Below, piece by piece: positions 3,798 to 56,106 of a DNA stretch of 64,000 bases (the stretch's first letter is position 1; each line of letters opens with the position of its first letter). The DNA lies in assembly GCA_965216315.1 (NCBI GenBank), contig CBDCFN010000016.1, forward strand, positions 1,792,001 through 1,856,000, in the 5' to 3' direction. The notes below the pieces were generated by a model, which saw nothing but the letters and a program-made list of their open reading frames with translations, did no database searches and was not told where the DNA came from. This stretch comes from a bacterium. GTDB lineage: Bacteria; UBA10199; 2-02-FULL-50-16; JAJFLM01. A program made the position numbers and the translations under genes.

Positions 3798-3942
3798 AAC
3801 GAGCCTCCTAGCCGCACCAGTTGTTCATATCAGATGCTTTTTACATCGACGCGCAGCCCCATATGTTGCGTGAAAAGCATTCTCCCCTTTCTTAAAATGA
3901 CATAATTTGTTACCTATTTTCGGCAAAGAACAGAGCATCGCT

Positions 3943-4404
3943 ATGACCAACCCCTACGACCAGATTATCAAGGACATCGACCGCAAGCCCTCCTTCAAAC
4001 GACGTTGGACCGTACGCCTGATATTCGGCGGGTTCATCGCGCTGATGATCGCGGGTCCGGGAGTCGCGGCATTTCCGAGCCTCATCAAACTGACGCAACC
4101 TTTACTCTGCTCGAACGGTGAGATTATCACTCAAAAACATCATCTCGGCTCGGGAACAACTCGAGAATTTACCATCGCTGTTCATTGTCTAAAACCAAAC
4201 GGAGAAAAATCTCCGGTCGGGACCTTTATCTCCATTGTTACCTTATTCGCGCTCTTACTCTTCCCCTGTATGATCGGCATCGCTTTCCTTGGGCAAGTCT
4301 GGAAATGGCATATGATCCGCAAATACGGCCCCAACTACAAAGAACAACTCCGCCGTTCGGCACAGGCCCGCCGGCAACGTTACGCAGAGCGGCAACGCTC
4401 TTGA
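3943..4404 (+). CDS. Hypothetical membrane protein (2 TM)
   Basis: Two hydrophobic segments flanking a Cys-containing loop; ATG at 3943 preferred over TTG 3907. Confidence 0.6.
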   Translation: MTNPYDQIIKDIDRKPSFKRRWTVRLIFGGFIALMIAGPGVAAFPSLIKLTQPLLCSNGEIITQKHHLGSGTTREFTIAVHCLKPNGEKSPVGTFISIVTLFALLLFPCMIGIAFLGQVWKWHMIRKYGPNYKEQLRRSAQARRQRYAERQRS

Positions 4405-4410
4405 TAGCTT

Positions 4411-5340
4411 TTATTGTGATGGCGGCTCGGAATGAGGCGAAGGATTGTCGTAGAAATTCCCTTGATAAATGAGCATGCGGGGCAAGGGGTAGTCCTTGTG
4501 TGGAATTAATTTAGTGACCCGTTCATGTAACTCCATGACACCATACTCATTGAGGGCTTCAAAAATCCGCACAACACTCTCAATCGCAAAATTCGTCCCG
4601 GGCAACACAAAGAGACGTCTCGAATGAAGGATCTCAAAACTTTCTTTCAAAGACCGAACCAGTTGCGGCACCGGGGTCTCAGCCGTCACATGGGCAACAT
4701 AATGTTTTTTGAGTAAGTCATCGACTATGATAAGTGCAGACGCTGAACCTAAACTCTCAACCGCTAACGCTTCACCAAAACCGGCGAGTATCATCTCGCC
4801 GGCAGTAACGAATTGATGGGGCGTATTCGACCGTGGCGCGGTAATTTGAAGCGTCATCGGCCATGCCTCAGAAATCAAGTTAGTCGCGAGTTTACGTAAG
4901 TGCCGAGTGGTCATGCGCTGCGCCGTCGGCTCGCGCGCGGGCAACTCAGGAATGCGCTCTAAAGGTTCCATTACCTTGCCTATCCAGGAAGGGTGTCGCC
5001 GCCGCGGTGGCAACTTGTTCTCACCTTCTTCCGGAGACGGCACTTGGCCGGTGATCTGCTGAATCAACGTATCAAGCCGCCGCACGCCAACATTCAAACC
5101 CTGAGGCTTGGCAATCAATTTGCGAATATCCTGCGTCGTCGGCCATACGGGAATCTTGTCGGGTTCGAGGCTGTCAATAACTTGCAAGGCCTCGTCCATC
5201 GTGCCCCGTAGCTCAGTTTCTCTATCCGTCGCTTGAGACTGCTCTTGGATTTGTGTCCAGAGAGCCGTTAAATGTATGATGGACGCCGGCCCGGCCGCGC
5301 ATAGCGACATGGACCCCAGCCCCAACCCATGAAATAGCAT
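4411..5340 (-). CDS. Hypothetical protein with C-terminal CheD-like deamidase fold (catalytic Cys replaced by Ala)
   Basis: VTAGEM...LAVESLGSASALIIVD...YVAHV resembles CheD V.xGE...T.LGSC..l.D...aH. Confidence 0.5.
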   Translation of the reverse strand: MLFHGLGLGSMSLCAAGPASIIHLTALWTQIQEQSQATDRETELRGTMDEALQVIDSLEPDKIPVWPTTQDIRKLIAKPQGLNVGVRRLDTLIQQITGQVPSPEEGENKLPPRRRHPSWIGKVMEPLERIPELPAREPTAQRMTTRHLRKLATNLISEAWPMTLQITAPRSNTPHQFVTAGEMILAGFGEALAVESLGSASALIIVDDLLKKHYVAHVTAETPVPQLVRSLKESFEILHSRRLFVLPGTNFAIESVVRIFEALNEYGVMELHERVTKLIPHKDYPLPRMLIYQGNFYDNPSPHSEPPSQ

Positions 5341-5410
5341 AATTCCCCTATCGACGCAGGTTCCAATAAGTTGCGTTGTGAATTTCCGTTTATTTTGCTA
5401 CTAGATACGC

Positions 5411-5881
5411 ATGGACGACGCTTCAGAACGGGCCCGGATACAGCTTCATGAGATCTTTCGGGATGCCGACGGCAACGGCATCCCGGACATACTCGAGGGC
5501 AAATTGCGCGGAGAAGACCTCCGCAATCTCGTCAGCTCCCAGTCTAATACCGTCAAGGTATTCGTCGGCGGCAAAGAGTATTCGAACCTCAATGAGCTGC
5601 CCAGCGATAAGAGACAGCAGATCGAACACAGCCTGGATCAATTGGCGCGCATATCGACCCAAGCCGGCAACGTTCTGAAGGGATTCGGCCTCTTCAAACT
5701 CATCAAGTGGTTTACCAAAAAGAAAGGGGCCGACTCGCAAAGGCTTTATACGACCGCATCTACCCCGCAAAACCCACCATCTTACCAGGTCGACGAACGC
5801 TCTTTTTTTGCTAAAAGCCTTCCTTTTTTGCTCGGAGCAGTCATTGTTGGGGCCTTGGCCTACTATCTCTTCGGGAAATAG
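5411..5881 (+). CDS. Hypothetical protein, DxDGNGxPD Ca-binding-like motif, C-terminal TM helix
   Basis: DADGNGIPD motif; C-terminal LPFLLGAVIVGALAYYLF. Confidence 0.65.
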   Translation: MDDASERARIQLHEIFRDADGNGIPDILEGKLRGEDLRNLVSSQSNTVKVFVGGKEYSNLNELPSDKRQQIEHSLDQLARISTQAGNVLKGFGLFKLIKWFTKKKGADSQRLYTTASTPQNPPSYQVDERSFFAKSLPFLLGAVIVGALAYYLFGK

Positions 5882-6071
5882 GCTTAAACCGCTAATCGAG
5901 CCCCCTAAAAAAATTCTTTCAAAATTTGGCTCTCTTCGCTAGTCTCCGCCAGGATTGTCGCCCGGTCGGCGGGTCCTGTCGCCTTCGCAATCCTTTGGCT
6001 GCGTCTACAGTGACGTTCCAAAGGATCGCTCGCGCCACCCGCCGCACGTTGTTAATTTATGAGGAGGGATC

Positions 6072-6716
6072 ATGAAGTTTATATTAATTGCGCTGACATT
6101 GGCTCTTGCGGGACCTGGTCTGATGGCCTGCAGCAAGTATAAGATGGTCAATGTGGAAGAGGATGAAAAGGCCAAGGCCGAGGAAGCTGAGAAGATGGCC
6201 ATGGAATTAAAAGAGAAGATGGCAAAAGAAGCCGCCGAAAAGGAAGCCGCTGAAAAAGAGAAAGAGCGTGAAGAGCAGCTCAAAGAGCAAGAAGAGAAGA
6301 TTAAAGAACTCGAAGAAAAACTCACTGAGCTTGACGAAAAGAAAGATGACAAGACCAAGGTTGTTGTCGTCCGCGACAAGTCACCGAGTTCGAGTGGATC
6401 TTCAGATAAGCCTGCCGGCAAGCCCAAGGGTTGGGTCCGGCTCTATGACGACAAGGGCTTTACCGACCGCCAGCTGACTATCGGCTTTGGCCGCAACATC
6501 GGCAATTTCCACAACATTAGTTCCGATGATGGTAAGTCTGGCTTTAATGATAAGGCGTCGGCCGTAAAATTCAACGTGCCGCCGGGATGGAAGGCTGTCC
6601 TCTATGAAAACAGCAACTATTCCAAACGCGCCTATCCTTTAAAGGGTCGCGGTGCCATTGCGGACCTGGGATACTTTGGCGACAAGGCCTCATCGATTCG
6701 CTGGGAAAGAAATTAA
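6072..6716 (+). CDS. Lipoprotein with coiled coil and beta/gamma-crystallin domain
   Basis: Lipobox LMAC; E/K-rich coil; two Greek-key-like motifs (VRLYDDKGF...NDKASAV; VLYENSNY...GDKASSIR); strong RBS gaggagg. Confidence 0.8.
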   Translation: MKFILIALTLALAGPGLMACSKYKMVNVEEDEKAKAEEAEKMAMELKEKMAKEAAEKEAAEKEKEREEQLKEQEEKIKELEEKLTELDEKKDDKTKVVVVRDKSPSSSGSSDKPAGKPKGWVRLYDDKGFTDRQLTIGFGRNIGNFHNISSDDGKSGFNDKASAVKFNVPPGWKAVLYENSNYSKRAYPLKGRGAIADLGYFGDKASSIRWERN

Positions 6717-6738
6717 AAAAATTAGGATAATTAAAATT

Positions 6739-6773
6739 AAAAAACCCGTCAGCGAAAGCTGGCGGGTTTTTTT
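6739..6773. terminator. Intrinsic (possibly bidirectional) terminator
   Basis: aaaaaacccgtcagc-gaaa-gctggcgggttttttt between convergent genes. Confidence 0.85.
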
Positions 6774-6804
6774 GTGAAGCGGAGTTGTTATTCGGATAAA
6801 AAGC

Positions 6805-7023
6805 TTAGCTGTGCCGTCCTCCACGTAGGTCGCTCAAGAAACCCGTGGCTTCTTCCTGGGTAAAATTCGTTGCAATCCGCTCATCCGTCGTTGGCGGGCT
6901 GGGGGTATGAGGATCTTGACCCTTCACAACGTGCTGCCCGTTCCGGGGCCGCCCAACAGGAACACTCGGGACGTTCTCTTGAAGCTTCGGATTATTGCTA
7001 TTAATTGAGAGTCTAAATACCAT
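6805..7023 (-). CDS. Small hypothetical protein
   Basis: 72-aa ORF preceded by the shared GCAAC-N16-GACGATAA promoter motif. Confidence 0.45.
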   Translation of the reverse strand: MVFRLSINSNNPKLQENVPSVPVGRPRNGQHVVKGQDPHTPSPPTTDERIATNFTQEEATGFLSDLRGGRHS

Positions 7024-7174
7024 AATTTCGTCCGTGCAGTAGTTATCGTCTCGGGTGGGGTATCGAGTTGCCAGGGAGTCAAAAAAAGCGACAGATCACT
7101 AGTTGAAATCGCTACCCATTTACCCTACAAAACCCAAATTAACACACTTTGAGGGGCCAACCAAGCCGCGAACT

Positions 7175-7822
7175 ATGCGAAAATTATCCAAACCCTGTTT
7201 TATCACCCTTGAAGGCGTCGAGGGCGCCGGAAAAAGCAGTCAAGTTGCTAATATTATTAAATATTTTGAGGACTCTGGCGATTCGATTCTCGCCACGCGA
7301 GAACCGGGTGGAACCTTGATTGCCGACGAGATCCGCCGGCTGCTCGTCGAATCCCACGATGAGCCCTTGGCTCCTCTCGCCGAGCTGCTCCTTTATAATG
7401 CCTCGCGCGTCCAGCACCTCCAACAGTGTATTCGACCTGCGCTCGCCGCCGGGTCTTCTGTGCTCTGCGATCGCTACACGGACGCGACGGTCGCTTATCA
7501 GTCCTATGGACGCCATCTATCCCTGGGAACGGTGACTCAGCTCAACGAATTGGCAACGGACGGTTTAACACCCGACTTGACCCTGCTCTTTGATTGCCCC
7601 CCGGAACTGGGGCTCGCAAGGTCCAAGTCCCGGCTTGCCGCTGAGGCCAGCCGCGAAGACCGCTTTGAAACCGAGGCTCTCGCCTTTCATGAGCGCGTCC
7701 GCGCGGGTTATCTGGAGATAGCCGCGCGACAGAAAGATAGAATGTTCATCATAGATGCAAGCCAAGATGCAACTGAAGTATGGGAACAGATTCAAAAAGT
7801 ATTCACGGATAGAATTGAATAA
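7175..7822 (+). CDS. tmk: Thymidylate kinase
   Basis: FITLEGVEGAGKS P-loop, TREPGG, LCDRY motifs; ATG 7175 likely start. Confidence 0.95.
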   Translation: MRKLSKPCFITLEGVEGAGKSSQVANIIKYFEDSGDSILATREPGGTLIADEIRRLLVESHDEPLAPLAELLLYNASRVQHLQQCIRPALAAGSSVLCDRYTDATVAYQSYGRHLSLGTVTQLNELATDGLTPDLTLLFDCPPELGLARSKSRLAAEASREDRFETEALAFHERVRAGYLEIAARQKDRMFIIDASQDATEVWEQIQKVFTDRIE

Positions 7823-7834
7823 TTCAGATGAAAT

Positions 7835-8722
7835 ATGAACGCACTCGATCAAATTCTCGGCCAAGAATCGGTCATTAAGGAACTGAAACACCGCCTGAAC
7901 CATCAAACCTTGCGCGGGAGTTTTCTTTTTACGGGCCCTGACGGCGTTGGCAAAAAAACCACTGCCCTTGCCGTCGTGGAGTCATTATTTGGTAAAGAGC
8001 ATGTCGACACTCACCCGGACCTTTTAATCCTGGAGCCCGATGAAAAGGACACCATCAAAATCGATGCGGCACGTGCGCTAATCCGGCGCATGAGCTTAAA
8101 ACCAACACAAGCACCCTTCAATATCGCCATTATCGATCGCTGTGACTGCATGACAACAGAAGCCAGCAATGCCCTCCTTAAAACGATTGAAGAACCAAAT
8201 GGATCGATATTCATGATAACAAGTCGCCCCGGTTCCCTCCTGCCAACCATACGTTCACGCTGCCAAGATATTCGATTTCGACCCCTTCCAAGCGATCTTA
8301 TTGTCGATTTATTACACCGGTTAGAAAAATGGCCCCAGGCTGAATGCGAAGCGGCCGCCGCATTAGCCGATGGGTCACTCACGCAAGCACGTCACTTTGG
8401 CACCTGGCTACAGGAACTCGGCCTTAATCTCACGGACCTCTTCAACACCTTGAGCTCCCAACCTTACACACAATTGGAAGCGCAACTCAAAGAACTCCCG
8501 TCGGATCCTCAAGGCATTATGTGTCTTCTTGCCGGTCTGCGCCAAATATGCCGCGACAATCTTGTTTCCTGTAACACAGACCAGAGCCGGCCCTGGCTTG
8601 ACTGCATTGACGCCATTAGTTCGGCTGAAATGGCCTTGCGACAACATACTGCCCCCCTCCTCCTCTGGGAAACACTCGCTTTTTCGTTTCAAAAAGTGCT
8701 AAGGACAAAAGATGTCGCGTAA
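7835..8722 (+). CDS. holB: DNA polymerase III delta' subunit
   Basis: GPDGVGK, HPDL, ASNALLKTIEEP, LLPTIRSRC; follows tmk. Confidence 0.9.
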   Translation: MNALDQILGQESVIKELKHRLNHQTLRGSFLFTGPDGVGKKTTALAVVESLFGKEHVDTHPDLLILEPDEKDTIKIDAARALIRRMSLKPTQAPFNIAIIDRCDCMTTEASNALLKTIEEPNGSIFMITSRPGSLLPTIRSRCQDIRFRPLPSDLIVDLLHRLEKWPQAECEAAAALADGSLTQARHFGTWLQELGLNLTDLFNTLSSQPYTQLEAQLKELPSDPQGIMCLLAGLRQICRDNLVSCNTDQSRPWLDCIDAISSAEMALRQHTAPLLLWETLAFSFQKVLRTKDVA

Positions 8723-10625
8723 AAAAATCTACATTACGACCGCCATCGACTACGTCAACAGCCTCCCTCACTTAGGCACCGCCTACGAAAAAATCGGTGC
8801 GGATGCCCTGGCCCGCTTCTATCGCCGCGAAGGTCACGAAGTTCATTTCCAAATGGGCAATGATGAACACAGCACAAATGTCCACAAAGCCGCTCAAGAA
8901 AAAAACTTAGCTCCCAAGGCCTACTGTGATGAAATGCGCCAACGCTTTGAAAGTATTTGGCAGCTGTTGGAAATTTCTTATGATGGATTTATCCAGACCT
9001 CCGAACCGCGCCACCACAAGGCCGTCCAGGCACTCTTCCAAAAGATTTATGATGCCGGCGACATATTCAAAGGTCACTATGAGGGTTGGTACTGCGAATC
9101 CTGCGAAGCCTATTATACAGAAAAGGATTTGGTCGATGGGCATTGCCCTAATCACAAGGCCAAACCCAAGTGGCTCCAAGAAGAAAACTATTTTTTCAAG
9201 CTCTCACGCTTTCAAGAACCCCTTCTAAAACTTTACGAAGAGCACCCCGAATTTATCGTTCCGGAAATTCGCCGCAACGAAATCAAGCGACTTGTAGAAG
9301 CCGGACTCCAGGACATCAGTGTCTCTCGTGCCGGCGTCCCCTGGGGAATTCCCTTACCGATTGATAATAATGAAGTTGTTTACGTCTGGTTTGATGCACT
9401 TATCAACTATCTCACGGCAACAGGATTTCCGGACAAGGGTTTCGAAGAGCTTTGGCCTGCCGATCTCCATGTGATCGGCAAAGACATCACGCGTTTTCAC
9501 TGCGTCATCTGGCCGGCCATGCTCATGAGCGCCGGACTCCCGCTGCCCAAAACGGTTTTCGGTCACGGTTTTGTTTATTTGAAAGGCGAAAAAATGAGCA
9601 AGACCCTGGGCAACATCGTCACACCTCTTGATATCGCCCCTACCTACGGCGCAGACGCACTCCGCTATTATTTGTTAGCTGAATCAAGCTTCGGTGCGGA
9701 TGGAGACTTCACTTGGGAAGGTTTTATCAACCGCTACAATGCGGATCTGGCCAATGACCTGGGAAATGTTCTCAATCGAACCGTTGGCATGGCCTATAAA
9801 TATCAAGATGGAGTGATCCGACGACCTGAAGGCGATGATGAAGCCGACGACGAGTTGCTCCAAGAAAAATTCACTCAAGTCCTCCACGAGATGAAAAAGG
9901 CGATGGATCCGGCCAACGGGGATATCCGCACCCATCAAGCGATTGGCTCGCTGTGGAGTTTATTAAGCGCGATCGACAAATATATTGATAGCGAAGCTCC
10001 ATGGACCTTACATAAAGAAAGCAAAGTCGATCGCATCAATGCCGTACTCTACCATGTAGCTGCGGCGCTACGCATAGCAGCGCTCTTATTGGAACCTTAC
10101 CTTCCACTTGCAGCGCAAAAAATATGGCAACGTTTGGGACTAGAAGACAAACAAGATTTTCAGGCCTTAAAATATTCGGAACTTGCGTGGCATGATTTGC
10201 CAACTGAATTCCGGCTTCAGCAAGGAGAGGCCCTCTTCCCTCGCATTGAGGCTGACGATCAAAAGAAATCCAAGAAAGGAAAGAAAATGGAAGCGGAAGA
10301 AGCAAAAATCAGTATCGATGATTTTGCCAAGGTTCAACTCAAAGTTGCTAAAGTCTTAGAGGCTGAAAAAGTCGAAGGCGCTGATCGCCTCCTCAAACTG
10401 CAAATTGATTTAGGCGATGAACAACGCCAACTCGTCGCCGGTATCGCCCAAAGCTATGCACCGGAAGAGCTAATCGGCAAGCAAGTCGTTATTGTCGCCA
10501 ACCTTAAACCGGCAAAAATACGCGGCGTTGAATCGAATGGCATGATACTCGCAGCATCGGGCAAAGATGGTGCTGTCATCCTCCAGCCACAGACGGAAGT
10601 CCCGCTCGGCAATCCGGTCCGTTGA
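8712..10625 (+). CDS. metG: Methionine--tRNA ligase with C-terminal tRNA-binding domain
   Basis: HLGT (HIGH), YVWFDAL, KMSKT motifs; C-terminal Trbp111-like domain. Confidence 0.97.
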   Translation: MSRKKIYITTAIDYVNSLPHLGTAYEKIGADALARFYRREGHEVHFQMGNDEHSTNVHKAAQEKNLAPKAYCDEMRQRFESIWQLLEISYDGFIQTSEPRHHKAVQALFQKIYDAGDIFKGHYEGWYCESCEAYYTEKDLVDGHCPNHKAKPKWLQEENYFFKLSRFQEPLLKLYEEHPEFIVPEIRRNEIKRLVEAGLQDISVSRAGVPWGIPLPIDNNEVVYVWFDALINYLTATGFPDKGFEELWPADLHVIGKDITRFHCVIWPAMLMSAGLPLPKTVFGHGFVYLKGEKMSKTLGNIVTPLDIAPTYGADALRYYLLAESSFGADGDFTWEGFINRYNADLANDLGNVLNRTVGMAYKYQDGVIRRPEGDDEADDELLQEKFTQVLHEMKKAMDPANGDIRTHQAIGSLWSLLSAIDKYIDSEAPWTLHKESKVDRINAVLYHVAAALRIAALLLEPYLPLAAQKIWQRLGLEDKQDFQALKYSELAWHDLPTEFRLQQGEALFPRIEADDQKKSKKGKKMEAEEAKISIDDFAKVQLKVAKVLEAEKVEGADRLLKLQIDLGDEQRQLVAGIAQSYAPEELIGKQVVIVANLKPAKIRGVESNGMILAASGKDGAVILQPQTEVPLGNPVR

Positions 10626-10646
10626 CAAAAAGCAAACAGAGGCGCC

Positions 10647-10886
10647 TTACCTTCTATTATTTTTTGCGACTAGACGCTGCCAAGGAGTCAGTTCCGGTTT
10701 TCCCATAATGAAATGGTCCCAAGGAGCTTCATTGGCGCGGGAATTCCCGGCGATCTGTGGAGGCGTCTGCCTGGAAGTTCCAAGCTTTTTTGCATTTGCG
10801 CGACTAAAAGCGGCAATGCTATCATCCAGATCTATTTGAGCCCGACTCACTGTAATGTGATCCGCTTTGAAATTAATTTCTGCCAT
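10647..10886 (-). CDS. Small hypothetical protein
   Basis: ORF with gaggt RBS before ATG 10886 and the shared promoter motif; PPQIAGN motif shared with 12050-12607. Confidence 0.5.
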   Translation of the reverse strand: MAEINFKADHITVSRAQIDLDDSIAAFSRANAKKLGTSRQTPPQIAGNSRANEAPWDHFIMGKPELTPWQRLVAKNNRR

Positions 10887-11088
10887 AACTATATACCTCA
10901 CTTAAAATTATTTTACTCACTTATCGAATATTATCGACAATTCGAAAACAATGTTGTGACTAGCGCACTAACTTCTGTTAACGCGAGTAAACAGTTTGTG
11001 TTCCTAGAGAAATTCATTTGCACAACTCCATTCCTTGGCATTCGATAATCGCCGCGGTTCTTGAGGGATTTATAAGGAGTCTGAAACG

Positions 11089-11901
11089 TTGTCTTGTGCG
11101 AGCATTGGAAATACGGATTCGGTCGCTGCGTCAATTTGCAGGACGTTTGTTAAATACGGCACTAAAGAGTCCCGCTTTAAAAGCAGTCAAGACGTCTATC
11201 GTTTAGCCATCGACTATGCGATACGAGAGGCACGGCAAAATTATCGGCGATTCCAACAAACCGCGGATGCATCGAAATTCGTATTTCAGTCACCCTGGCT
11301 GAGTTATTTGCATAACAAGGGCGTCATTATCCCCTTTATATTTGACGACCTTAAGACCTCTCGGACCGATGATTTATCGACGTTTCGCCAGTTAAAACAG
11401 CAGAAAAATGCTATTAAGGATATCGCCGCCTTACATTCATTTATCGAGGGCTCAAGCGGTCTCAGCATTAGCTTTAAGAGCAATCCCGGCAACCCAACGC
11501 CCCATAGCCTAGATGCCGTTGCCAGCAAAAAGGGAAACTGTCTTGACTATATTTACCTGTACTATGGGCTTGGAACCTTATTAAAAATCGATATGACTCC
11601 TCATGACCAGCTCGATACCGCCGTCGACAACGCGCATGTGCTTGCAAAATCGGGAAATACATTTTTTGACCCACAGACGGGAACTTCGGTCGATTCACCG
11701 CAGACGCAGGCACTTAGCAGTTTAGAACTGCTCGCTTTTTATCACTATAACAATGCCTTTTACGGGGAATGCAAAGGGCTAAATGATAGTGAAAAAACCG
11801 CTTGTGCCGAAAAAGAAATTCGCTTAGCGGAGCGCTATGCGCCAAGCAATCGTCAAGTCAAACTCGCCCGCGCTTATCTCGACAGTCAATCCAACCAGTG
11901 A
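11089..11901 (+). CDS. Transglutaminase-like (Cys-His-Asp) protein
   Basis: KGNCLDY, AHVL, FFDPQ spacing typical of the transglutaminase-like triad; taaggag RBS. Confidence 0.65.
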   Translation: MSCASIGNTDSVAASICRTFVKYGTKESRFKSSQDVYRLAIDYAIREARQNYRRFQQTADASKFVFQSPWLSYLHNKGVIIPFIFDDLKTSRTDDLSTFRQLKQQKNAIKDIAALHSFIEGSSGLSISFKSNPGNPTPHSLDAVASKKGNCLDYIYLYYGLGTLLKIDMTPHDQLDTAVDNAHVLAKSGNTFFDPQTGTSVDSPQTQALSSLELLAFYHYNNAFYGECKGLNDSEKTACAEKEIRLAERYAPSNRQVKLARAYLDSQSNQ

Positions 11902-12049
11902 CTGCGCTATGCTTCATTAGGAAATCCCCGCCCTGTTAACGAACGTCAACAGATAATTTCCACTCCGAACAACAATTTACTTTCTCCAGCCGATAACTCC
12001 AGACATTGGGTTAGTCACAATTTTAATTAAAGAAGTAAGGAGACATAAA

Positions 12050-12607
12050 ATGGGAGAAAGTAACCTGGTTAATTGCAAAGCCAATAAGGATCCTTGGCTT
12101 ATGCCGAAGTGTGAACCCAGAGAAGAAACCAGCGATGAGTTTTATGAGCGTATTGAAGCTGAAGTTGATGCAGAAATCGCGGCGGAAGAAGCTAAAGCGA
12201 AGGCTGAGGCCAAAGCGAAGCCAGCTAAGCGTGTCGTTGCTGCGCCACCGCCACAGATCGCCGGAAACGGCCCGATGACAGCTGATTTAAGTTCTTTGAC
12301 AGAACCCCTCGTCCCCGGCCCCACAGCAGAACCGACCGTAACAGCCACACCAAAACCTAAAAATGTTCAGTATCGCAACGTTGTGTTCAACACAGGGGAC
12401 AATCAACGAGGCGCCGGCCGCATCGCCGTTGTTAAAGCGGGCAGTAATGAACGTGAAATGGGAAATTACTTGTCAAGCGAAGGCTTCGATCAAACGCCAA
12501 TCCGCTTAAAGGACGGCAGGTTGGTCTACGTCCCGCAAACCATGAGTTCGACGAATAAGGCTTATCTACAGGTAGCCCTCGAAAATGGGAACCTGCGCTT
12601 AAAATAG
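12050..12607 (+). CDS. Hypothetical protein
   Basis: taaggag RBS, shared promoter motif, Ala/Lys/Pro-rich linker. Confidence 0.7.
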   Translation: MGESNLVNCKANKDPWLMPKCEPREETSDEFYERIEAEVDAEIAAEEAKAKAEAKAKPAKRVVAAPPPQIAGNGPMTADLSSLTEPLVPGPTAEPTVTATPKPKNVQYRNVVFNTGDNQRGAGRIAVVKAGSNEREMGNYLSSEGFDQTPIRLKDGRLVYVPQTMSSTNKAYLQVALENGNLRLK

Positions 12608-12878
12608 AAAGCGTCCTAAAAAAGTTAAGCCCGCGCCAGCGACTGAATTTCATCACTGAGCTGCGGAGCAAAGGGATGGACAAGGTCCGATGCGGCGAGC
12701 AATAAGCCTGGCGCGCCCGCCTCAACAACGCTATGCGTCATTCCTCTGAGGCCCCTTCCCCCCAAGTTGAGGACTTCCGTTGACAAAAACATTTATTTTT
12801 TAATTATTTGTAAACATTACTATCTAAAATTCTCTAATATTTTCAAATAATTATAAATTTATGAATGCATACTCTATT

Positions 12879-12946: not shown

Positions 12947-15900
12947 ATGGGTGATCATCCCAAGATAGAAAAGCAGGTTCAGGAAATATTGGCAGGTGCG
13001 AACAATCCGCCTCCAGCCATCCACCCACGCCTGCTCAAGGAGATCCCACCGGAAGTAATCGACGACACGCACTCGGTTCGCATCACCGCGGACGGTTTCG
13101 AACTGACCCCAGTGAATGCCGAGCCTATGCCTCCCGAGATGGCAGCCTGTCTCCAGCAACCGAATCAAACTGCAAGACTCGACTGTCTTTTTTCACCATC
13201 TACATACCAAACCCCTGATGTCGACACGTGCCTGGCCATGCCCGACCCGAATGCTTCGGTTAATTGTCTCTTCGGTCCAGGCCTGAGTTTATTTACACCG
13301 ACAAGCACCAGCGCCACAACCATCGCAACCCCAGTCGCACCGACTGAAGAGGCTTCGGAAGTCGACAAGGCATTGCATGAACTCGCCACTGCGGACACCG
13401 ACGAAAAACGCAAATTTGCAGCCAAAAAGGCCTTGGCTGCCGCGAAAAAAAGTCCGAACGCTGAGGTATTGGCCGTGCCGATGGTTACTGCCGAGATCGC
13501 TGCGATCAATGGAAAATATTTAGAAGCCGCCAAGCAGTACGCGCAGCTCTCCGCTTCGCTGCAAGTGCTCGCGGCGACGAATAAAGAAATTCAACCTCAC
13601 GTCGACACCGTTGAAAAACGACGCCGTGGCGTTCTCGCCGCCGGGGCCGCCGTCGCGGTCGCCCAGATCAAGTATGCCGAATCCCCGGAAGCAGGATTAC
13701 GCTTGCAAAAACAGGCGACGGACTGCGCCGATCAATTGTATCTCGCTGAACCGACCGAGAAAAATCTCCAGCTCCTGCTCGCCACGTATGCCCAGGTCGG
13801 TCTGGATGTCCGCGAGGGGCGCCGCCGCATGGCCGCCAATGACTATCGTATCAATGCCCTCACGTTGGGTACCTTTGATCCGAAGCTGGACCCCACCGGG
13901 GAAAGCAATCCCGCTCCTGACAATGATCCTTTCAATTCCAAAAGCATCTTGGGTCCCGACATCAACGACATCGATCACTTCGGCTTCAAGGCCGAACGCT
14001 CCAAGGCGGATACGATCGCCGAGCTGCAGCAAACCAACAAGGAACTCAAGGGCATCGTCGATGAAACCGAACAACATATTCTTAGTCTCATCGCCCGGGC
14101 GCATCCAAACGATCCGTTTGCCTCCAATGTCCAAACGGCCACCGCGCATGTCGTCATGGGCAACAACCCAGCCGCGATGAAAAACCTGCAGGTCGCCCGC
14201 ACACTCTTCAAAGATAAGAGCGTCGAGCACACGCCTGACAATAAAGTGACCTATATCACCCTGCTCCACCGCATGGTGGATATCGCCGGGACGAAGACGG
14301 CCCTCAAGGAAGAAGTCTTGCTCGAAGCCCGCCAAGCAATTGATGAAATGATCAAGTCGCATCCCAAAGTCGCCTTGACCCTGCGTCTCGAGAACATGGA
14401 GCTGCTGGGCCAAGTTCGCGTCGATAAAGCAGCGCGCAAACTCAATGACAAATCCTTAAGTGATGATGACCGCAAAAAAGCCGTCGACAACTATCACCGG
14501 GCCCTGTCACGCAAACATGAAAACATCTTGATGTATTGCAAGCAAGTCTTGCCAATGACGCAGGATCCCGAAGCCCGCAAAGTTCTCATCGGCGGCATCG
14601 CACGTGCCGACGCCGGGCTGCTCGAGGCTCAACTCGATCGCAGCATGACAATTTATCTCAACGGCAACGAAGACCTCGGCAAGGGCTATGCCCAAGTCGA
14701 TATGGATTCGTTTCATCGGCGCATGGCGGAACTGCAGCAGCAGAATCCGACAGTTGATCTCAGCGAGGCCTTGAGCCGCGGGATGTTGGCCCAAGCGCAT
14801 TTTCAATTCCGCACCGGGCAGATCGAAGAGTCGGTTAAGAACCTGCGCAAAATCGTCAACGATCATCCGAAGTCAACCGCGGCTAACATGGTCCGCAGTA
14901 AAGGCGGTTGGGCGCATAAGTACAGTATTGTTACGGACAAGGGTGAATTTAATCCGAACATCGGCACCGAAAGCTGGACGGCCGGCACCAAGGAATTACT
15001 GGGCAAACTCAATAAAAAACCCGGCCGTGCGATGTTGGCTGCCACCGGCGGTTCGATCGTCGGCTGGGGCGCCGGGATGATCTTCGCCCCGGAAATCACC
15101 GGCCCCCTGTTAATCGCCGGTGCGGTCGGTGGGTTTCTTATCGATCGCACGGTTCTCGTCGCCCAAGAGTGGTCCCAAATCTCCGCGGCCTACAATACGG
15201 GAATCTCGACGGTCAGTACCGAAGAAGCGGCCCGCGAAGGCGGCATCTTCGCCCTGCAACTGTTCAGCATGTTCGTCGGCGGGGCGGCCGGTGGTGTTGC
15301 CGAACGCGCGGTCCTCGCGGGTGGAACGCGTCTGGCCCGTTCAATGGCCATGCGCGGGATTACCTCGTCGCCGTGGATGCGCGCGACCGGGGCCTTCGCG
15401 TTGCGTGAGGCCTCTTATGTGGCCAATGCCTATGCCTTCCATGAAACGTCTAATTTAACGACGCAGGCCATCGGAACGGCGGTTGGTCTCGATATCCCCC
15501 AACCCGACTCGAGTCACAACGATGATGTGATCTCGTCTTGGCTCTTCGTCCGCGGCTTTGCCAAGGCGATGAAGATGAACCTCGGTGCCAAGTTTGTCCC
15601 CGGTGAGAGCTTCGGCGCGAAGCTGGCGCAGGGTTCGATCAACATGGGCGTGGGCTTGGGCATCGTGCATACGGCCAAGGCCCTGCGCGAATGGGACCTG
15701 CGCCACCTCGATCCCGACACTCTGGCACGTTCGGCGTTTGATCTCTTGCTCATGCACCACGGAAACAAGGCACTTGGTTCCGTCATTCCGATGTCCGGGA
15801 TTGAAAAGATGAGTAAGGACCTCGAAACGATGACAAAGAAAAATATGCGCGACGCGGCGGCGGCGGTTAAATTTAAACAAGATACCGGGCTTTCGCTACG

Positions 15901-18900
15901 ACAAGCAGTGGGCCTGGGTTCGAACCCTCTCGCCGCACTTCTCCCGGTTCTCATGTACGGCCTACCCATTGTTCCAGGAAAGGGAACAAGTAGTAGAAAG
16001 GCCGAGTCCAAACCAGAAAAGAAAGCGGATCCGGAAGCAACGAATCCCGGACACACGGAAGCAAGAAACCCAGGCGCTAGAGAGGATACTAGGACCAAGG
16101 CAGGTAGAGGAACCAATCCGGGCGTCGACACAAGAAAAGTCGCCAACCTGGATCCTACTTCATTCCTTGCCGAACAGCTCCGCAAGAATGCGTCCACTGA
16201 CTCTGACCAATCGAAAGACACTCGTTCAGAAGAGCACTTGTACGTCGCGGCTTTCATCGAATATTATAATCAGCCCGCACGCATTGAAACGCTAAAAGCA
16301 CTCGGTCAACGAGAAGGTGATGTGGGCCGGAGCGCACGACGTTTCCATGATACATTGATGGACCTTCACATCGACATAGCCGAATACAACCGACTTGCCG
16401 CTGAAAACGTCGATAAAAAGGATCCGGCTGTCACCGAAAAAATGGAAAAGCTCTGGAAGCACAAGATTCTCCGCATGGTCAATCCACGGAAGAACACGCG
16501 TCTGGGTCATGACGGAAATAAATTCGGCGCAGGCGAGCTGGAGCAGCATGACTATAATCAAATAGAAACCGCTTACGCGAATAAACAACAAGCTCTTAAT
16601 AGCGACCTACGCGGCCTCTTCACGGTTCTTGCCATCCTCGAAGTCAAGGCCAACGCCGAGGCTAATAACAGCGGCAAGATGCCCGAGATGGGCTACAAAG
16701 TTTCTTATCAACGCCCTGAAGACCTGGCCCATGTCAACTTTGACCTGAATAATCTCAGCGAAAGTTTTTCCAAGTTATCCGCCCATGAGCTCGTTCAACT
16801 CAATATCCGTGCCAGCAGCCATGAGGCCGCACAGCGCATCGTTGAGACGTTTCGTAACGCCGGATATGAGGTCGTGTCGCATCCCGGGCAAAAAATTAAT
16901 TATAAAGTCAAGGTCCCTTACACGCACAAGATAGGCGGCGTGGAAATACAAGGGACGCATACGGTTGGGCTCAGGCTGGCCGTCGAACCTGCACCCCTCG
17001 GAGCTAAAACCCGACTCTCTCCCGCCGAGACCGCCTCACACGGTTTTGAACTGGCCTGGAACAATAAAAACTTCTGGTCGGAGACCGCTATTCCCGTCCT
17101 TCATAACGGCAAAGTCATTATTTTCAAGATGCGCCCGGGCCTCCCGGAGCCAACGGGTAAGTTTACAACCCTTGCTTCGGAAATCAATGAAACGATTACC
17201 GATCCAGTCGCCAAAGAGCGCCTCCTCAACATGGTCACGGCCCTCCATGGCCTCCATGAACGCCTGCCGCAAGGGGCCAATAAGACCAAGATTGAAACGG
17301 CGATCGATGAATCACGGACCGCACTCCTCAAGAACGGTGCCCGCACGGAGAGTTTAGCTGCCGTATGGTTGACGCTGGGCACTGCTTTGGCCGCATCAGC
17401 GCCGAAACTTCCGCACGTAGCAAGACACTCCACGGAAATGCGCGTCGACCTTCATCTCCCGAAGACCGATTATGACCACCATGTTGCCCAGAATAGTTGG
17501 AAATACACATTACCCGTGCTGCAACGCATGCCCAAGCGGGTGAGACAGTATATTGAATTGGCGACCGCTCCTTATTACGTCGATGGCATGAGCGAACCTA
17601 TCGTTCCGGATGCGCAGAAGACGATTGACTTGGTGACTCACATCGGAGTCGAAAAATTTGATTCCATTTTAAAGGCCGTCAAAAACAACGAACCTGCCCG
17701 CGCCAATATCGACACCTTGCTCAACTATGCGCTCGACACCACGAATTCCGAGAGAAACGCTCACGTCAAAGATTTCATCAACAAGGCATCGATTCATCAA
17801 ATCTTGCTTCTCGTCACCTATCCCGGTAAGAAAAATGTCGTCGCGCAGATCGCCGAAAAGGGTTATGTCGACATACTCAGCGGAGACCCCGCGACCCATG
17901 TCCCTCGCATCGAAAAGATGACCGACACTGCGCTTCGTGATGTACTTCTGGCATTAACGGCACAACGCATGTTTCAACAACATAAGGACAACCCTAAAGC
18001 AACGACGCCTGAAGGCATGGCTTTGCTGCTTAACTTTGGCATTGAACCCGACACGCATTTTCGCTTTCCCTGGAACGCCGTAGATGTAATTGACCGCTCA
18101 AAGCTCTATTTCCGCATCAAGACAGAGCGCAGGGCCTTCCGCAAACAGCTTGGCAAAGCCATTGAAGGCAAGGAAACCGAACTGGATGCGTTGACTGATA
18201 AAATTTGGGAACTCATCCTCATCCAGGACTATAAGGACACCCACCTTCCTTACACTCCGCATGGCTGGAAGCACACCCTCGATGTCGTCAAGGAACAACG
18301 TAAAATTTATAATGGGTCTCCCGAACTCCAAAAAGCCTTGATCGGACAGTTTGGTTCCGAGGCCAAGGCCCTTGCCGTCCTCGATATCGTCGCCATGATG
18401 CACGATGTGGGTTACGGAGCCCTTAAGCCGGGGGAATCCAAGGGAATTCATGCGATCCGTAGCGGTGAACTCTGGAAGGCCCAAATTGCCGACCACGCCA
18501 AGAAAACCCTCGATCTCAATGACAAGCAAATTGAAGATATTTTCTTGGCCATTCAACGCCATGGCGCCGACAAAAAGGGTAAAGGCGGCTACATGGAGGC
18601 CAACTTAGACAACCCTCTCCTCTTTGTCATTCGATTGGCGGACAATCTTGATTCAAGTAAGTCACGGCTCCGTAACATTCAGACACACCCACTTTTTATT
18701 GAGGGTATGAAAGAGATGAGAGAATTCGCTAATGAAAATCCCGATGTCGTCAACAACAAGAAAGAAATGAAGGCCGCGTTACAGAAGATTCGTTTGAGTT
18801 ACGAAAGAAAATTTGAAACGAATATGAACCCCAATGATGCCAAATTAGCCAAAGAACTTTTGGACCGCATGGACCATCTGAGTTGGCCTCACTTTAAGGG

Positions 18901-23697: not shown

Positions 23698-24323
23698 GAA
23701 GTAAATAGCGCCCGCAACCGCGCTATAAAATTAGGCTCGACCGCCTCAAGCAGCTCCGTATCTAAGGCCTGTGCGGCCATGATTGACAGGCTAACAACCC
23801 GCGACCGCGTCTCCGACCGCAATTGCGTCACACTCAACTGATTCACAATCATCGTGGCCAGTCTCATCGTCTCCCGATACGCATCCCCCTCTTTTGTTCC
23901 TGAATCATCTAAACGCGTCTGATGAAACTGTAACCCACGGACTTGTGATTGCAATTCACTTATACGCTGAGTTAATTGCTGTCGTGTCCTAAAATCTAAT
24001 TGGGGGACCTGTGCGGCAGCAAAGAGAGTAGCAATCTGTTCAAGAACATCGGGAAGATCCGTCAACAAGGCGGTCGCATGCGCTACCGCACCATGATCCT
24101 GATTGATAACAATGATGGGATCGCTATGCAACTGGACGACAGGCGCTAAAGCCAGTGACTTGGCACTTGATGACGGCGTGCTTTGCTGCGATTTGATTGG
24201 CCGCGCGGGAAGACTCTCCTGAGATCCGCTGGGATAAACGCCCGTTCCGTGAGGTGGCGTGTTCGAGGCTGCCAGTAAAGTTGGTAGCATTCCCAGATTG
24301 ATCGAAAAGGCGCCTGTTAGCAT
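23691..24323 (-). CDS. Hypothetical helical protein (flagellin-like segment)
   Basis: 210-aa ORF preceded by GCAAC-N15-GCCGATTT. Confidence 0.55.
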   Translation of the reverse strand: MLTGAFSINLGMLPTLLAASNTPPHGTGVYPSGSQESLPARPIKSQQSTPSSSAKSLALAPVVQLHSDPIIVINQDHGAVAHATALLTDLPDVLEQIATLFAAAQVPQLDFRTRQQLTQRISELQSQVRGLQFHQTRLDDSGTKEGDAYRETMRLATMIVNQLSVTQLRSETRSRVVSLSIMAAQALDTELLEAVEPNFIARLRALFTSY

Positions 24324-24521
24324 CGTGCCGCTAAATCGGCGCTCCGACTCCGAAAGTTGCGGTCCGTCGCCGCGGACGCCATTAAAAAGAGCTTACTTGT
24401 GTATACAGCGACAAGCAAATCTCACAAGTTGTGCTGACATTGAGCGCGCAAGTTGTGCGCTCACGCATCAGGCCTTTTCATTTAATTAAATGATTTTAAT
24501 AAGTTAAAGGCTCCCTCCTCT

Positions 24522-24537
24522 TGGCACGACCGTTGCA
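24522..24537 (+). promoter_or_regulatory. sigma54 promoter of giant gene C
   Basis: TGGCACGACCGTTGCA, a consensus match; gaggag RBS then ATG at 24563. Confidence 0.8.
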
Positions 24538-24562
24538 ATTGTATTGGGCACGAGGAGTGACC

Positions 24563-33224: not shown

Positions 33225-33328
33225 CTCCTCATGCTACTATTATTATCGAGGGGGAGGCTTGGAGCGTTCCGAGTCGGACCTCAATCAGGCTGCTAATCGT
33301 ATTCCACAGAATACGGGCGGAATACGCC

Positions 33329-34009: not shown

Positions 34010-34061
34010 CAGAATAACATTATCGGCACGCTTCTTCCATTGAGTTGCCTATTCTCTGTCT

Positions 34062-52892: not shown

Positions 52893-52918
52893 CAATTCAA
52901 TATATCACAATAAACTAA

Positions 52919-53248
52919 TTAAATCTTGCCTTGGAGCAAGAATGCAATAACCAGCGCATAAATGACCAGCGACTCGATCAGGGCCAGCGCGATGATCATC
53001 GGGGTCTGCACCTTACCGGCAGCACCTGGGTTGCGAGCGATTCCCTCAAGGGCCGCCGTTGCCGCCTTACTCTGACCAAAGGCACCACCAACAGCGGCAA
53101 TCGCAATACCGAAACCAGCCGCCAGGGCCAGGGCTGACTTAACGTCGCCACTCGTGCCGCCCATCGCACCATGATCTTGAGCCCAAGCCATCGCCGGGCC
53201 TAAAGTTGCAACGAAAGATGCTACCAACATCCAAAAATATTTCCGCAT
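52919..53248 (-). CDS. atpE: ATP synthase F0 subunit c
   Basis: [16 protein letters not shown]-terminal extension. Confidence 0.95.
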
Positions 53249-53280
53249 GAGAGTCTCCTTAAATAGTTCCAATTTAATAT

Positions 53281-53973: not shown

Positions 53974-53974
53974 G

Positions 53975-54439
53975 TCAACTTTCCTCTTCGGTCTGAGGGC
54001 CAACAAGACCCCAAATACCTTCCAACACGATTCCGATGACGATACAGGAGAGACCCACTAAAAAGGGCACCACCACAATCGGAACTTTTAATACAACATA
54101 GCCCAGGACCCCGAACAATACCGCCGCCTTGGCGATAAAGATCAACAAGAGCCGCTTTGAACTCGTCTCTTCGCGGTTAATGAGTCCTGTTACGAGGCGC
54201 TCCAGGAGCCAAAAATTGGCTACGGCAATCGCAATCCCAATGGCAACGCTGAGAGTGGCCGTACGACTCACAAAGAACAGGCTCCCAACCAGTAAGAGGA
54301 GCCCCGCAACGAGGCTCTTTATCCAAATGGACCGTGTTCTTGTCAAGATTTTCTGCCTTCCTTTGGGGCTCGCGTCGCCCCCTCCACCGGCAAAGCCGGA
54401 CGGAGCCTCCCCCTGTCGCTCACTTTGCTCGCTAAACAC
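53975..54439 (-). CDS. atpI: ATP synthase protein I (N-terminus derived from the repeat)
   Basis: Four TM, ANFWLL motif, position upstream of atpB. Confidence 0.75.
   Translation of the reverse strand: MFSEQSERQGEAPSGFAGGGGDASPKGRQKILTRTRSIWIKSLVAGLLLLVGSLFFVSRTATLSVAIGIAIAVANFWLLERLVTGLINREETSSKRLLLIFIAKAAVLFGVLGYVVLKVPIVVVPFLVGLSCIVIGIVLEGIWGLVGPQTEEES
54364..54434. repeat. REP/MITE-like element, diverged copy 3
   Basis: ggggctcgcgtcgccccctccaccggcaaagccggacggagcctcccc...gctcgcta; compensatory stem changes. Confidence 0.85.
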
Positions 54440-54443
54440 TGAT

Positions 54444-54707
54444 TCATGAATCGCCTTTACTATTATCTGAACGCCGTTGTTTCCAATTCATAATTCGGAT
54501 CAAGTTATAAAAACCGCCGGTACTGCCTAAAAGCAGACCAACCAGGGTCAACCAGGGACCCGTCCCCCAGTGTTCATCGGCTAGATAACCGACATACAAG
54601 CCCCCCACCACGGCAAAAGCGAGCTGAAAGCCTACGGCTCCGTAGATACCAAAGGCGACGATAAATGAATCCTTGTTGCCCGAATCATCCTTCTTAGGGC
54701 TCATCAA
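54444..54707 (-). CDS. AtpZ/AtpI family membrane protein
   Basis: GYLADEHWGTGPWLTLVGLLLG motif; upstream of atpI. Confidence 0.85.
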   Translation of the reverse strand: MMSPKKDDSGNKDSFIVAFGIYGAVGFQLAFAVVGGLYVGYLADEHWGTGPWLTLVGLLLGSTGGFYNLIRIMNWKQRRSDNSKGDS

Positions 54708-55996
54708 AGCGACTCCAAGGCGCGACCGGCCGCCTCGATGGTCTGAGCAATTTCTTCCTCGCCGTGGGCGATGGACAAGAACCAGGCCTCATAGGGAGAC
54801 GGAGGTGGATAGACCCCCTGCTCTAGCAAGCTATGGTAAAAACCCTTGAAACGATCAGCACTTATCCCTTGAACCTCATCATAATTATCAACTTGTTTTG
54901 CAGCGGTGAAAAAGAAGGAAAACATGGAGCCGATGCGAGCCACGACCATAGGAACGCCGCAACAATCCGCTTCGGCCTTGACGCCATCGCAGAGCGTCTT
55001 GGCACTTCGATTGAGCTCCTTATAGGGATTAAGTGCCTGCAACTCCCTGACAGTTGCCAAGCCCGCCGCCATGGCCAGGGGATTTCCCGACAGCGTCCCG
55101 GCCTGATAGACGGGTCCTTCCGGCGCCAATTGTTGCATCAAGTCGGCTCGCCCTCCAAACGCCCCAACCGGCAGACCTCCGCCAATGACCTTACCCAAGC
55201 AGGTCAGGTCCGGCTCAATCCCGTACAATTCCTGGGCCCCACCAAAGGCCAAACGAAAACCCGTCATGACCTCATCAAAAATCAGCAGAACCCCTTCCGC
55301 CCGCGCGAGCTGCGAGAGCTCCTGCAGAAAAGTCCCCTGCGGCGCCACGAGGCCCATGTTGCCACAAACCGGTTCTATAATGATGGCCGCTACTGACCCT
55401 TGATTCTCACCCAAGAGTTTTTTCACGTGGTCGAGATCGTTGTAGCGCGCGAGCAAGGTATGGGCCGCAAAATCGGCGGGCACCCCGGCACTGTTCGGCA
55501 CCCCCAAGGTCGTTGCACCGGAACCTGCCTTGACGAGCAAATAATCCGCATGGCCATGATAGGCCCCTTCAAACTTGATAATCTTGTCCCGGCCGGTGGC
55601 TCCACGCGCCAAGCGGATCGCACTCATCGTCGCCTCGGTGCCCGAATTGACGAAGCGGACCCGTTCCATGCTCGGGTAGGCCTGCCGAATCAATTCTGCA
55701 AACGTGACCTCCTGAACGGTCGGTGCTCCAAAGCTCGTGCCTGACTCGGCGGCTGCATTGATGGCCGCCACCACCTTGGGATGCGTGTGTCCGAGTATCA
55801 TCGGCCCCCACGACCCAACGTAATCGATGTATTGATTGTCATCGACGTCCCAAAGGTAGGCACCTTTTGCCCTCGCGATGAACGGGGGCGTCCCGCCAAC
55901 CGAACCAAAGGCGCGCACCGGACTATTCACACCACCGACGAGGGACTCCTGAGCCCTCCTAAAGGCCTGCTCTGATTTATCAAAGGAATTCGACAT
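54704..55996 (-). CDS. hemL: Glutamate-1-semialdehyde 2,1-aminomutase
   Basis: GGVNSPVRAF, NSGTEA, FDEVMTGFR, GKVIGGGLP, QAGTLSGNP. Confidence 0.96.
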   Translation of the reverse strand: MSNSFDKSEQAFRRAQESLVGGVNSPVRAFGSVGGTPPFIARAKGAYLWDVDDNQYIDYVGSWGPMILGHTHPKVVAAINAAAESGTSFGAPTVQEVTFAELIRQAYPSMERVRFVNSGTEATMSAIRLARGATGRDKIIKFEGAYHGHADYLLVKAGSGATTLGVPNSAGVPADFAAHTLLARYNDLDHVKKLLGENQGSVAAIIIEPVCGNMGLVAPQGTFLQELSQLARAEGVLLIFDEVMTGFRLAFGGAQELYGIEPDLTCLGKVIGGGLPVGAFGGRADLMQQLAPEGPVYQAGTLSGNPLAMAAGLATVRELQALNPYKELNRSAKTLCDGVKAEADCCGVPMVVARIGSMFSFFFTAAKQVDNYDEVQGISADRFKGFYHSLLEQGVYPPPSPYEAWFLSIAHGEEEIAQTIEAAGRALESL

Positions 55997-56106
55997 GATA
56001 GGCTGAGCTAGCACTTTCACCGCAGGGGCGCAAGAGCCGTCCTCAGCAAAACCCCCTAGAATAGCGAAACATTTTCCGAAATACGCAGATAAAGGCGTAA
56101 TCGATC

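Follow-up and report, generated by a model that had tools for sequence, protein, structure and literature searches.

Introduction

A promoter-like motif with the consensus GCAACTTT-N11-GCCGATAA recurs along a 64-kb stretch of DNA (G000:C16:1792001-1856000, referred to here as the window) from a bacterium whose genome (2.96 Mb in 16 contigs, 98.3% complete) belongs to the phylum UBA10199, also named 'Ca. Esaciota' (PMC11382960). The closest described systems are the class-3 promoters of sigma-28/FliA in E. coli, Salmonella, and P. aeruginosa. These carry the same -10 octamer GCCGATAA at the same spacing of 14 nt, and they share with the motif a T-rich stretch after the -35 pentamer. Their start about 7 nt past the octamer and their reader of the FliA/WhiG family have a predicted and a probable counterpart here. 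The -35 pentamer and the helix of region 4.2 differ, being TAAAG and ESRVSQLH there and GCAAC and KSWTSRLH here. The class-3 regulon comprises a few dozen promoters, whereas there are about 250 here, in a genome with no flagellin or rod/hook C-terminal domain, and the sigma gene in question is located in a non-flagellar type III secretion cluster.

A FliA-type factor without a flagellum is known from Chlamydia. Its sigma-28 gene lies next to flagellar/type III export genes and the factor controls a developmental stage, with a small regulon and the classical consensus. In Bdellovibrio bacteriovorus, TTAAG-N16-CCGATA was described on 92 of 140 attack-phase promoters, as given in passages of Karunker et al. 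2013 (PMC3627812). According to the same passages, the life phase is regulated globally there by a sigma-28-type factor, which targets many unknowns besides proteases, surface proteins, and regulators, and the attack-phase genes are richer in G+C, as are the genes downstream of the motif described here (median 0.536 against 0.514). Bdellovibrio, as portrayed in these passages, is flagellated and has the classical -35 box, whereas the organism studied here has no flagellin and a changed -35 box and helix. A further contrast is that the sigma gene here resides in the secretion cluster, and that a canonical FliA coexists with it in flagellated relatives.

We report the motif with its statistics, how it is conserved, and that it co-occurs with the sigma gene, and from these we infer its reader, its start position, and the purpose of the programme. 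It is likely, in our judgment, that the motif represents the promoter class of one divergent FliA/WhiG-family (sigma-28-like) sigma factor encoded in a non-flagellar type III secretion cluster. The open-access texts that were searched describe neither a sigma-28 promoter of the GCAAC type nor a type III cluster that harbors a sigma gene. What is new is a paralog of sigma-28 whose -35 specificity is re-tuned and whose regulon is very large and rich in orphans; classical sigma-28 and the Bdellovibrio FliA regulon were already known.

Genome-wide statistics of the motif

A two-box position weight matrix was iterated on intergenic DNA of the genome (13.9% of the total by rough gene calls). It was trained on 357 intergenic sites and converged on CGCAACTTT-N11-GCCGATAA. 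The spacer had the main length at 259 of these sites, and was longer by one, two, or three nucleotides at 47, 39, and 11 sites, and shorter by one at a single site. The -35 consensus was (C/A)(G/A)CAAC followed by TTT. In the -10 octamer the column frequencies were G.55, C.52, C.97, G.98, A 1.0, T.77, A.73, and A.73.

The simpler pattern AAC-N16-CGATAA occurred 130 times genome-wide, compared with 24-58 times for spacers of 12-15 and 17-22. Ninety-two of the 130 occurrences were intergenic, and 75 lay within 150 nt upstream of a same-strand start. At a threshold of 15 bits the matrix found 453 sites, as against 93 matches when the reversed and complemented strands of the whole genome were scanned as a control; 253 of them were within 200 nt of a same-strand start. 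The median distance to the start codon was 51 nt. The preliminary description of the window had predicted a genome-wide enrichment in position and orientation. This was borne out, since 317 of the 453 sites were intergenic, where we infer that roughly 13 chance matches would be expected, and since in tandem intergenic regions 161 sites aimed at the downstream start and 12 the opposite way. From the spacing peak at N16, the intergenic bias, the orientation, and the distance to the start it follows that the motif behaves as a promoter, and the repeated signal is a real promoter type.

We also considered that the sites might be chance matches picked from a loose pattern. The loosest union pattern of the preliminary description gave 19 matches in the window, only about twofold above the 9.6 +/- 3.2 (maximum 17) found in 100 dinucleotide shuffles; the pattern by itself therefore proves little, and the signal lies in spacing, position, and orientation. 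The nine extra matches of this pattern all fell in coding DNA. One of the ten sites originally proposed scored just 12 bits, at which level chance is expected to account for about one-eighth of intergenic matches. For the other nine, the genome-wide counts together with the conservation across genomes described below refute a chance origin, whose overall probability we put close to nil.

Promoter class and predicted start site

The fliC promoter of P. aeruginosa reads TCTAAAG from -36 to -30 and GCCGATAA from -15 to -8, as given in passages of PMC12784957. The -10 element of the motif is this same sigma-28 octamer, as had been noticed in the preliminary description, and the spacing in GCAAC-N14-GCCGATAA equals that in TAAAG-N14-GCCGATAA. 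The -35 element TAAAG(TTT) was not found in the motif, which has only two A's and the T-run in common with the classical box.

When the distance from the octamer to the next start codon was examined, an ATG opening an open reading frame (ORF) of at least 60 aa was found 6-10 nt past the octamer at 88 of the 317 intergenic sites, with a peak at 7 nt (27 sites). In the solved P. aeruginosa complex the distance from -8 to +1 is also 7, and the pile-up of ATG codons fits a start at the A of these codons. The preliminary description had asked for start sites about 6-8 nt downstream of the -10 box, and the ATG distances bear on this indirectly. A search for sequencing runs with positions 3800-12700 of the window gave four of DNA type, all from one study, and none of RNA. 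The probable start of transcription is about 7 nt past the octamer, and the distances suggest that at about a quarter of the promoters the RNA would begin with the A of ATG, giving leaderless mRNAs. With an ATG so often at the predicted +1, leaderless translation would seem to be common in the regulon.

Sigma factors of the genome and the likely reader

Five genes of the sigma-70 family were found in the genome, encoding RpoD, an RpoH-like factor, two ECF (extracytoplasmic function) factors, and one FliA/WhiG-like factor. The last is encoded at G000:C16:350583-351407 (L053:8583-9410), outside the window. FliA_WhiG (TIGR02479) was its best-scoring family, followed by SigB/F/G with 82.9 bits; the NCBIfam model for the chlamydial type of sigma-28 gave 93 bits (cut-off 378). 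Among solved structures the nearest were WhiG (6pfj, 3e-24) and FliA (9wsf, 7e-22; 6pmi, 4e-21), whereas SigF (1l0o) reached only 9e-11. At its N terminus the protein is extended by about 40 residues, variable and rich in lysine, which do not align to solved FliA chains.

Conservation was examined in a sample of the phylum comprising 61 genomes from 50 genera. All 61 were rich in the motif: CAAC-N16-CGATAA occurred 19-107 times per genome, against 0-8 times for the reversed control. An ortholog of the FliA/WhiG-like sigma was present in 61 of 61, and besides an RpoH-like factor it was the only alternative sigma found in every genome.

The preliminary description had called the -35 box ECF-like, and one of the two ECF factors of the genome might accordingly read the motif. 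In promoters of ECF (group 4) sigma factors the core of the -35 box is indeed AAC, and the -10 box, some 16 nt further on, contains CG, much like the AAC and the 16-nt spacer to CGA seen here. The -10 box of the motif, however, comprises eight bases (GCCGATAA) and is the sigma-28 box, and the geometry is that of sigma-28. ECF genes are, moreover, dispensable in the phylum. In 24 of the 61 motif-rich genomes no relative was found with either ECF query, and 16 genomes had just 2-3 matches to Sigma70_r2. ECF sigmas usually autoregulate from their own motif. Upstream of the two ECF genes no site of at least 15 bits was present, the best being 10.6-10.9 bits before one (L002) and none reaching 10 bits before the other (L003). 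On the basis of the phyletic gaps and the missing autoregulatory site, an ECF factor was rejected as the reader; we regard it as highly improbable.

A second alternative is that RpoD or the RpoH-like factor reads the motif with an unusual specificity, or that the motif is a transcription-factor site over ordinary promoters. No other promoter-like signal of the genome is as conspicuous as the motif with its about 300 sites, and both factors occur throughout the phylum, with which the co-occurrence is compatible. Yet region 2 of RpoD fits the family profile almost perfectly (88.7 bits), and a classical TTGAC-N17/18-TAnnWT signal exists separately, with an intergenic excess at these two spacers (17 and 28 sites, compared with 4-12 for the others). 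Within the window, no site of at least 15 bits preceded nuo, atp, hemL, or tmk-holB-metG, in agreement with the earlier remark that the motif had not been noticed before the housekeeping operons. The fixed 7-nt distance to ATG fits a -10 box rather than an operator, and the motif travels with the same type of sigma in distant lineages (see below). We consider this alternative quite improbable. With the ECF factors excluded, RpoD, the RpoH-like factor, and the FliA/WhiG-like factor are left, of which the FliA/WhiG-like factor alone is related to a sigma known to read GCCGATAA.

Several points weigh against the assignment to the FliA/WhiG-like sigma. RpoD and the RpoH-like factor are universal as well, and co-occurrence does not separate them from it; they are excluded only by their differing known consensus sequences, which are established knowledge, and by the separate TTGAC-type signal. 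The score of the sigma on TIGR02479, 133 bits, is below the cut-off of 189.6. A search of the genome for a FlgM-type anti-sigma factor (PF04316) gave 0 matches at E <= 0.1; a non-homologous anti-sigma may take its place. In called coding DNA there were 136 sites of at least 15 bits, above the number predicted by the control; these may be internal promoters or lie in mis-called genes. The genes themselves (2207) were called with our own rough caller, which missed short genes. One of the coding-DNA sites, at 338833(+), lies inside argJ, 221 nt before FlhA.

Taken with these points, the assignment to the FliA/WhiG-like sigma is still the one that we favor. The claim of the preliminary description that a sigma-28-like factor drives a large orphan-rich regulon is supported by the -10 octamer, the presence of a single FliA/WhiG-like sigma, its co-occurrence with the motif, and the high share of downstream genes without a Pfam family (see below). 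In the proposed mechanism, holoenzyme with this sigma would read GCAACTTT-N11-GCCGATAA, and the changed -35 pentamer (GCAAC for TAAAG) would match a changed helix in region 4.2.

Region 4.2 and the separate flagellar FliA

Two region 4.2 residues, S224 and Q228, touch -35 bases in the P. aeruginosa complex, according to the passages of PMC12784957 mentioned above. When the FliA/WhiG-like sigma was aligned to the P. aeruginosa chain, the helix read KSWTSRLH in place of the canonical ESRVSQLH. The base-contacting Gln (Q228) was replaced by Arg, and a neighboring Arg by Trp. KSW[TV]SRLH was present in 45 of 45 orthologs.

Nine of the 61 sampled genomes had flagellin, and the genome under study had neither flagellin nor the rod/hook C-terminal domain (Flg_bbr_C). 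Seven flagellated genomes were sampled, and each had a second sigma, 25-32% identical to the first and encoded near flagellar genes. These seven flagellar FliA paralogs had the canonical helix TE[SA]R[VI]SQ[IV]H, which was also present in the P. aeruginosa, E. coli, and WhiG chains. The FliA/WhiG-like sigma and the flagellar FliA are therefore distinct paralogs.

Upstream of eight of the nine flagellin genes (L055-L063, from genomes G029, G048, G007, G026, G016, G013, G036, G034, and G044) we found T[ATC]AAG[TGC]T[TC]-N11-12-TCCGT, and upstream of none the GCAAC motif. In the flagellin pattern the -35 box is the classical one of sigma-28, and the -10 box is unusual. When AAGTTT-N11-12-TCCGT was searched genome-wide in five flagellated relatives, it was not enriched (32 matches, against 43 for the reversed control); its sole support is the conservation at eight of nine flagellin genes. 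The two sigmas would thus be served by promoters that differ in both boxes, which would keep their regulons apart. How paralogous sigmas avoid cross-talk becomes testable here, as the pairs GCAAC/KSWTSRLH and TAAAG/ESRVSQLH can be swapped.

The type III secretion cluster

The gene for the FliA/WhiG-like sigma is part of a type III secretion cluster at G000:C16:344700-360500 (L052 and L053). Upstream of it are genes for an SctD-like FHA protein, a TPR protein, SctJ, and two unknowns. From the sigma gene on, the order is a 162-aa unknown, FliG-like, FliH/SctL, the ATPase, YscO/FliJ, and FliK-like, and the cluster ends with FliM, FliN, FliO, FliP, FliQ, and FliR. FlhA is encoded 10 kb upstream and FlhB elsewhere, at 805 kb. 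No secretin gene was present within the cluster; two secretin-family genes are located elsewhere in the genome. In combining parts of flagellar and of injectisome type, the cluster is reminiscent of the needle-less 'Myxo' systems. The T3SS* of Myxococcus xanthus, as described in passages of PMC10849154 and PMC3459982, is likewise secretin-less, and the cluster resembles it also in keeping flagellum-like parts (FliG-like, FliM/N, and FliO), a likeness that does not imply orthology. In the passages compared here no sigma factor is mentioned for that system, and the words 'sigma' and 'FliA' occur 0 times in PMC3459982.

Several units of the cluster, including the operon that holds the sigma gene, were preceded by sites of 17.9-24.9 bits. 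In 45 public loci with orthologs of the sigma, the order sigma, FliG-like, FliH, ATPase was kept in 37-41. These loci, with G+C contents of 37-61%, gave 91 matrix matches against 13 for the controls. Sites recurred about 3.1 kb and about 1.0 kb upstream of the sigma gene, and the same was seen in the genome studied here (347330 and 349486). The position of the motif upstream of the sigma's own operon in relatives suggests autoregulation. Under the proposed mechanism, the regulon would take in parts of the secretion cluster as well as this operon, resulting in positive feedback.

Directly after the sigma gene there is a fast-evolving ORF of about 165 aa (L053:9407-9895), which was found in 42 of 44 loci of relatives. 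Its C-terminal stretch is conserved (N..Q.QMD, SGKKFS..ELLA.QA). When this ORF and four other small ORFs of the cluster were compared with Pfam at E <= 5, nothing meaningful was obtained.

Occurrence in other lineages

In a library of 1.84 billion representatives, 118 proteins matched the FliA/WhiG-like sigma at E <= 1e-30. Among the best 150 matches, at least 114 had a helix of the [KR]SW type, 36 being missed by the regular expression used. Where the source gave a name for the relatives with this helix, it was 'FliA' or 'sigma-70 family', and the sole organism named belonged to the Acidobacteriota. The nearest Atlas clusters were most frequent in Myxococcota and Planctomycetota.

An alignment of proteins with the KSW helix was used to retrieve 80 metagenome loci, and 39 of them contained a sigma 35-45% identical to the one studied here. 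These 39 loci gave 41 matrix matches against 7 for the controls, and 19 of the 39 had a site immediately past the sigma gene. Where the loci were long, the sigma was followed by SctJ, FliH, the ATPase, and FliPQR. Since such distant loci carry the sigma, the cluster, and the promoter together, the trio is not confined to this lineage, and the factor is not lineage-specific as had been supposed. The results point to an uncharacterised branch of sigma-28 with a re-tuned -35 reading head and a fixed residence in type III clusters of several lineages.

Genes downstream of the motif

An intergenic site scoring 15 bits or more was present within 200 nt of 250 first genes. With co-directional followers within 60 nt included, the regulon amounts to about 330 of the 2207 called genes. 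The motif thus probably turns on about every seventh gene, and the function of most of these genes is not known. Hundreds of non-flagellar genes lie under this sigma-28-type promoter; the targets are orphans, hydrolases, and regulators, rather than late flagellar or chemotaxis genes.

Family content was assessed in 40 evenly spaced 20-kb tiles of contig C16, using all 66 motif genes wholly inside the tiles and, as controls, 66 genes drawn at random from 261 eligible genes of the same tiles. No Pfam family was found at E <= 1e-6 for 43 of the 66 motif genes, compared with 14 of the 66 controls. The motif genes that could be named included those for a subtilase, an M23 peptidase, a lytic transglycosylase, alpha-2-macroglobulin, and LamG, as well as four helicase-type proteins, a DUF4423 regulator, a hybrid kinase, PilZ, and FHA. 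Ordinary enzymes (RibBA, BioB, Ddl, and RtcB) were also among them. The gene for the DUF4423/TIGR02147-type regulator is at L072:17715-18599 (G000:C16:97715-98599).

The products had been proposed to be possibly secreted, and this was not confirmed: by a crude heuristic, signal-peptide-like N-termini were found in 13% of motif genes and 18% of controls. By the same kind of heuristic, multi-pass membrane proteins were depleted (2% compared with 11%).

The motif offers a readable regulatory code for an uncultured phylum, one 28-bp signal marking about 250 promoters, and it defines a coherent programme among genes otherwise without annotation. The pattern of the regulon would fit a life-phase programme, comparable to the FliA-driven attack phase of Bdellovibrio.

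By analogy with FlgM and the flagellum, the sigma might be the output of a secretion-gated switch, in which the needle-less type III apparatus exports a putative inhibitor upon assembly or contact with a target cell and so frees the sigma. We regard this as rather unlikely, and mention it for what it would entail. If it were true, release of the sigma would switch on about 15% of the genome, and some of the fast-evolving orphans without signal peptides would be cargo of the apparatus. The KSW-helix sigma, the type III cluster, and the GCAAC/GCCGATAA promoters would then make up an ancient contact-response circuit of several phyla, which the -35 specificity would separate from the true flagellar FliA in flagellated members.

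Sites in the 64-kb window

The ten sites of the preliminary description were all recovered exactly as written, with the same coordinates and strands. Nine of them scored 16.4-25.2 bits on the matrix trained on intergenic sites of the same genome. They are listed in Table 1 together with an eleventh site, upstream of a subtilase gene, that was not among the ten.

Table 1. Motif sites in the window and the genes that follow them (positions in the window; spacer given as the change from the main length)
Positions	Strand	Boxes	Spacer	Score (bits)	Downstream gene
3843..3870	-	CGCAAC-N-GTCGATGT		18.6	2889-3797(-), ATG ~45 nt downstream; orphan, no Pfam family
5348..5375	-	CGCAAC-N-GTCGATAG		23.0	4411-5340(-), ATG at 5340, 7 nt past -10 box; orphan, no Pfam family
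7043..7072	-	GGCAAC-N-GACGATAA	+2	16.4	6805-7023(-), sole ORF, doubtful, 72 aa; no Pfam family
10931..10958	-	CACAAC-N-GTCGATAA		25.2 (highest of the ten)	10647-10886(-), ORF of 79 aa, 44 nt downstream; orphan, no Pfam family
11021..11048	+	CACAAC-N-TTCGATAA		20.9	11089-11901(+), 40 nt downstream; orphan, no Pfam family
11968..11996	+	AACAAC-N-GCCGATAA	+1	20.9	12050-12607(+), 53 nt downstream; orphan
24333..24361	-	CGCAAC-N-GCCGATTT	+1	18.5	23691-24323(-), ATG 9 nt past -10 box; orphan, no Pfam family
33243..33271	-	CGGAAC-N-CTCGATAA		12.0 (weak)	32811-33224(-); orphan
34020..34049	-	GGCAAC-N-GCCGATAA	+2	20.9	33329-34009(-), 10-16 nt downstream; lipoprotein-like orphan, no Pfam family
56065..56092	+	CGAAAC-N-GCAGATAA		18.4	56107-57027(+), 14 nt downstream; orphan
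61736..61763	+	GACAACTTT-N-ACCGATAA		24.7	61814-63406(+), 50 nt downstream; subtilase (Peptidase_S8)

The mRNA of the gene at 4411-5340 is a candidate for a leaderless message, and that of the gene at 23691-24323 a candidate for a leaderless message or one with a very short leader. The sites at 10931 and 11021 form a divergent pair. The site at 33243 is plausible but not secure. The product behind the site at 7043 may be a small protein or a small RNA. The 72-aa ORF that follows this site is of low complexity and converges on a lipoprotein gene. When the window was searched with Rfam, one tRNA was found and nothing else.

No homolog of the orphan at 56107-57027 was found in the 40 other genomes of the phylum that were searched. 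It has a paralog in its own genome (G000:C16:1310063-1311451, 29% identical), and this gene has its own site of 21.3 bits, 9 nt before the start. The cargo of the regulon turns over, while the promoter code is kept.

Export-like features were seen in the window only for the products of 33329-34009 and the subtilase gene. The orphan at 12050-12607 is followed on the same strand by two giant orphans (12947-19210 and 19474-23697), and the genes after the site at 11968 have no Pfam family or TPR only. Four giant genes are present in the window altogether, at 12947-19210 (2087 aa), 19474-23697 (1407 aa), 24521-29701 (1726 aa), and 57021-61559 (1512 aa). All four have no Pfam family or only TPR repeats, and the first two lie downstream of the site at 11968.

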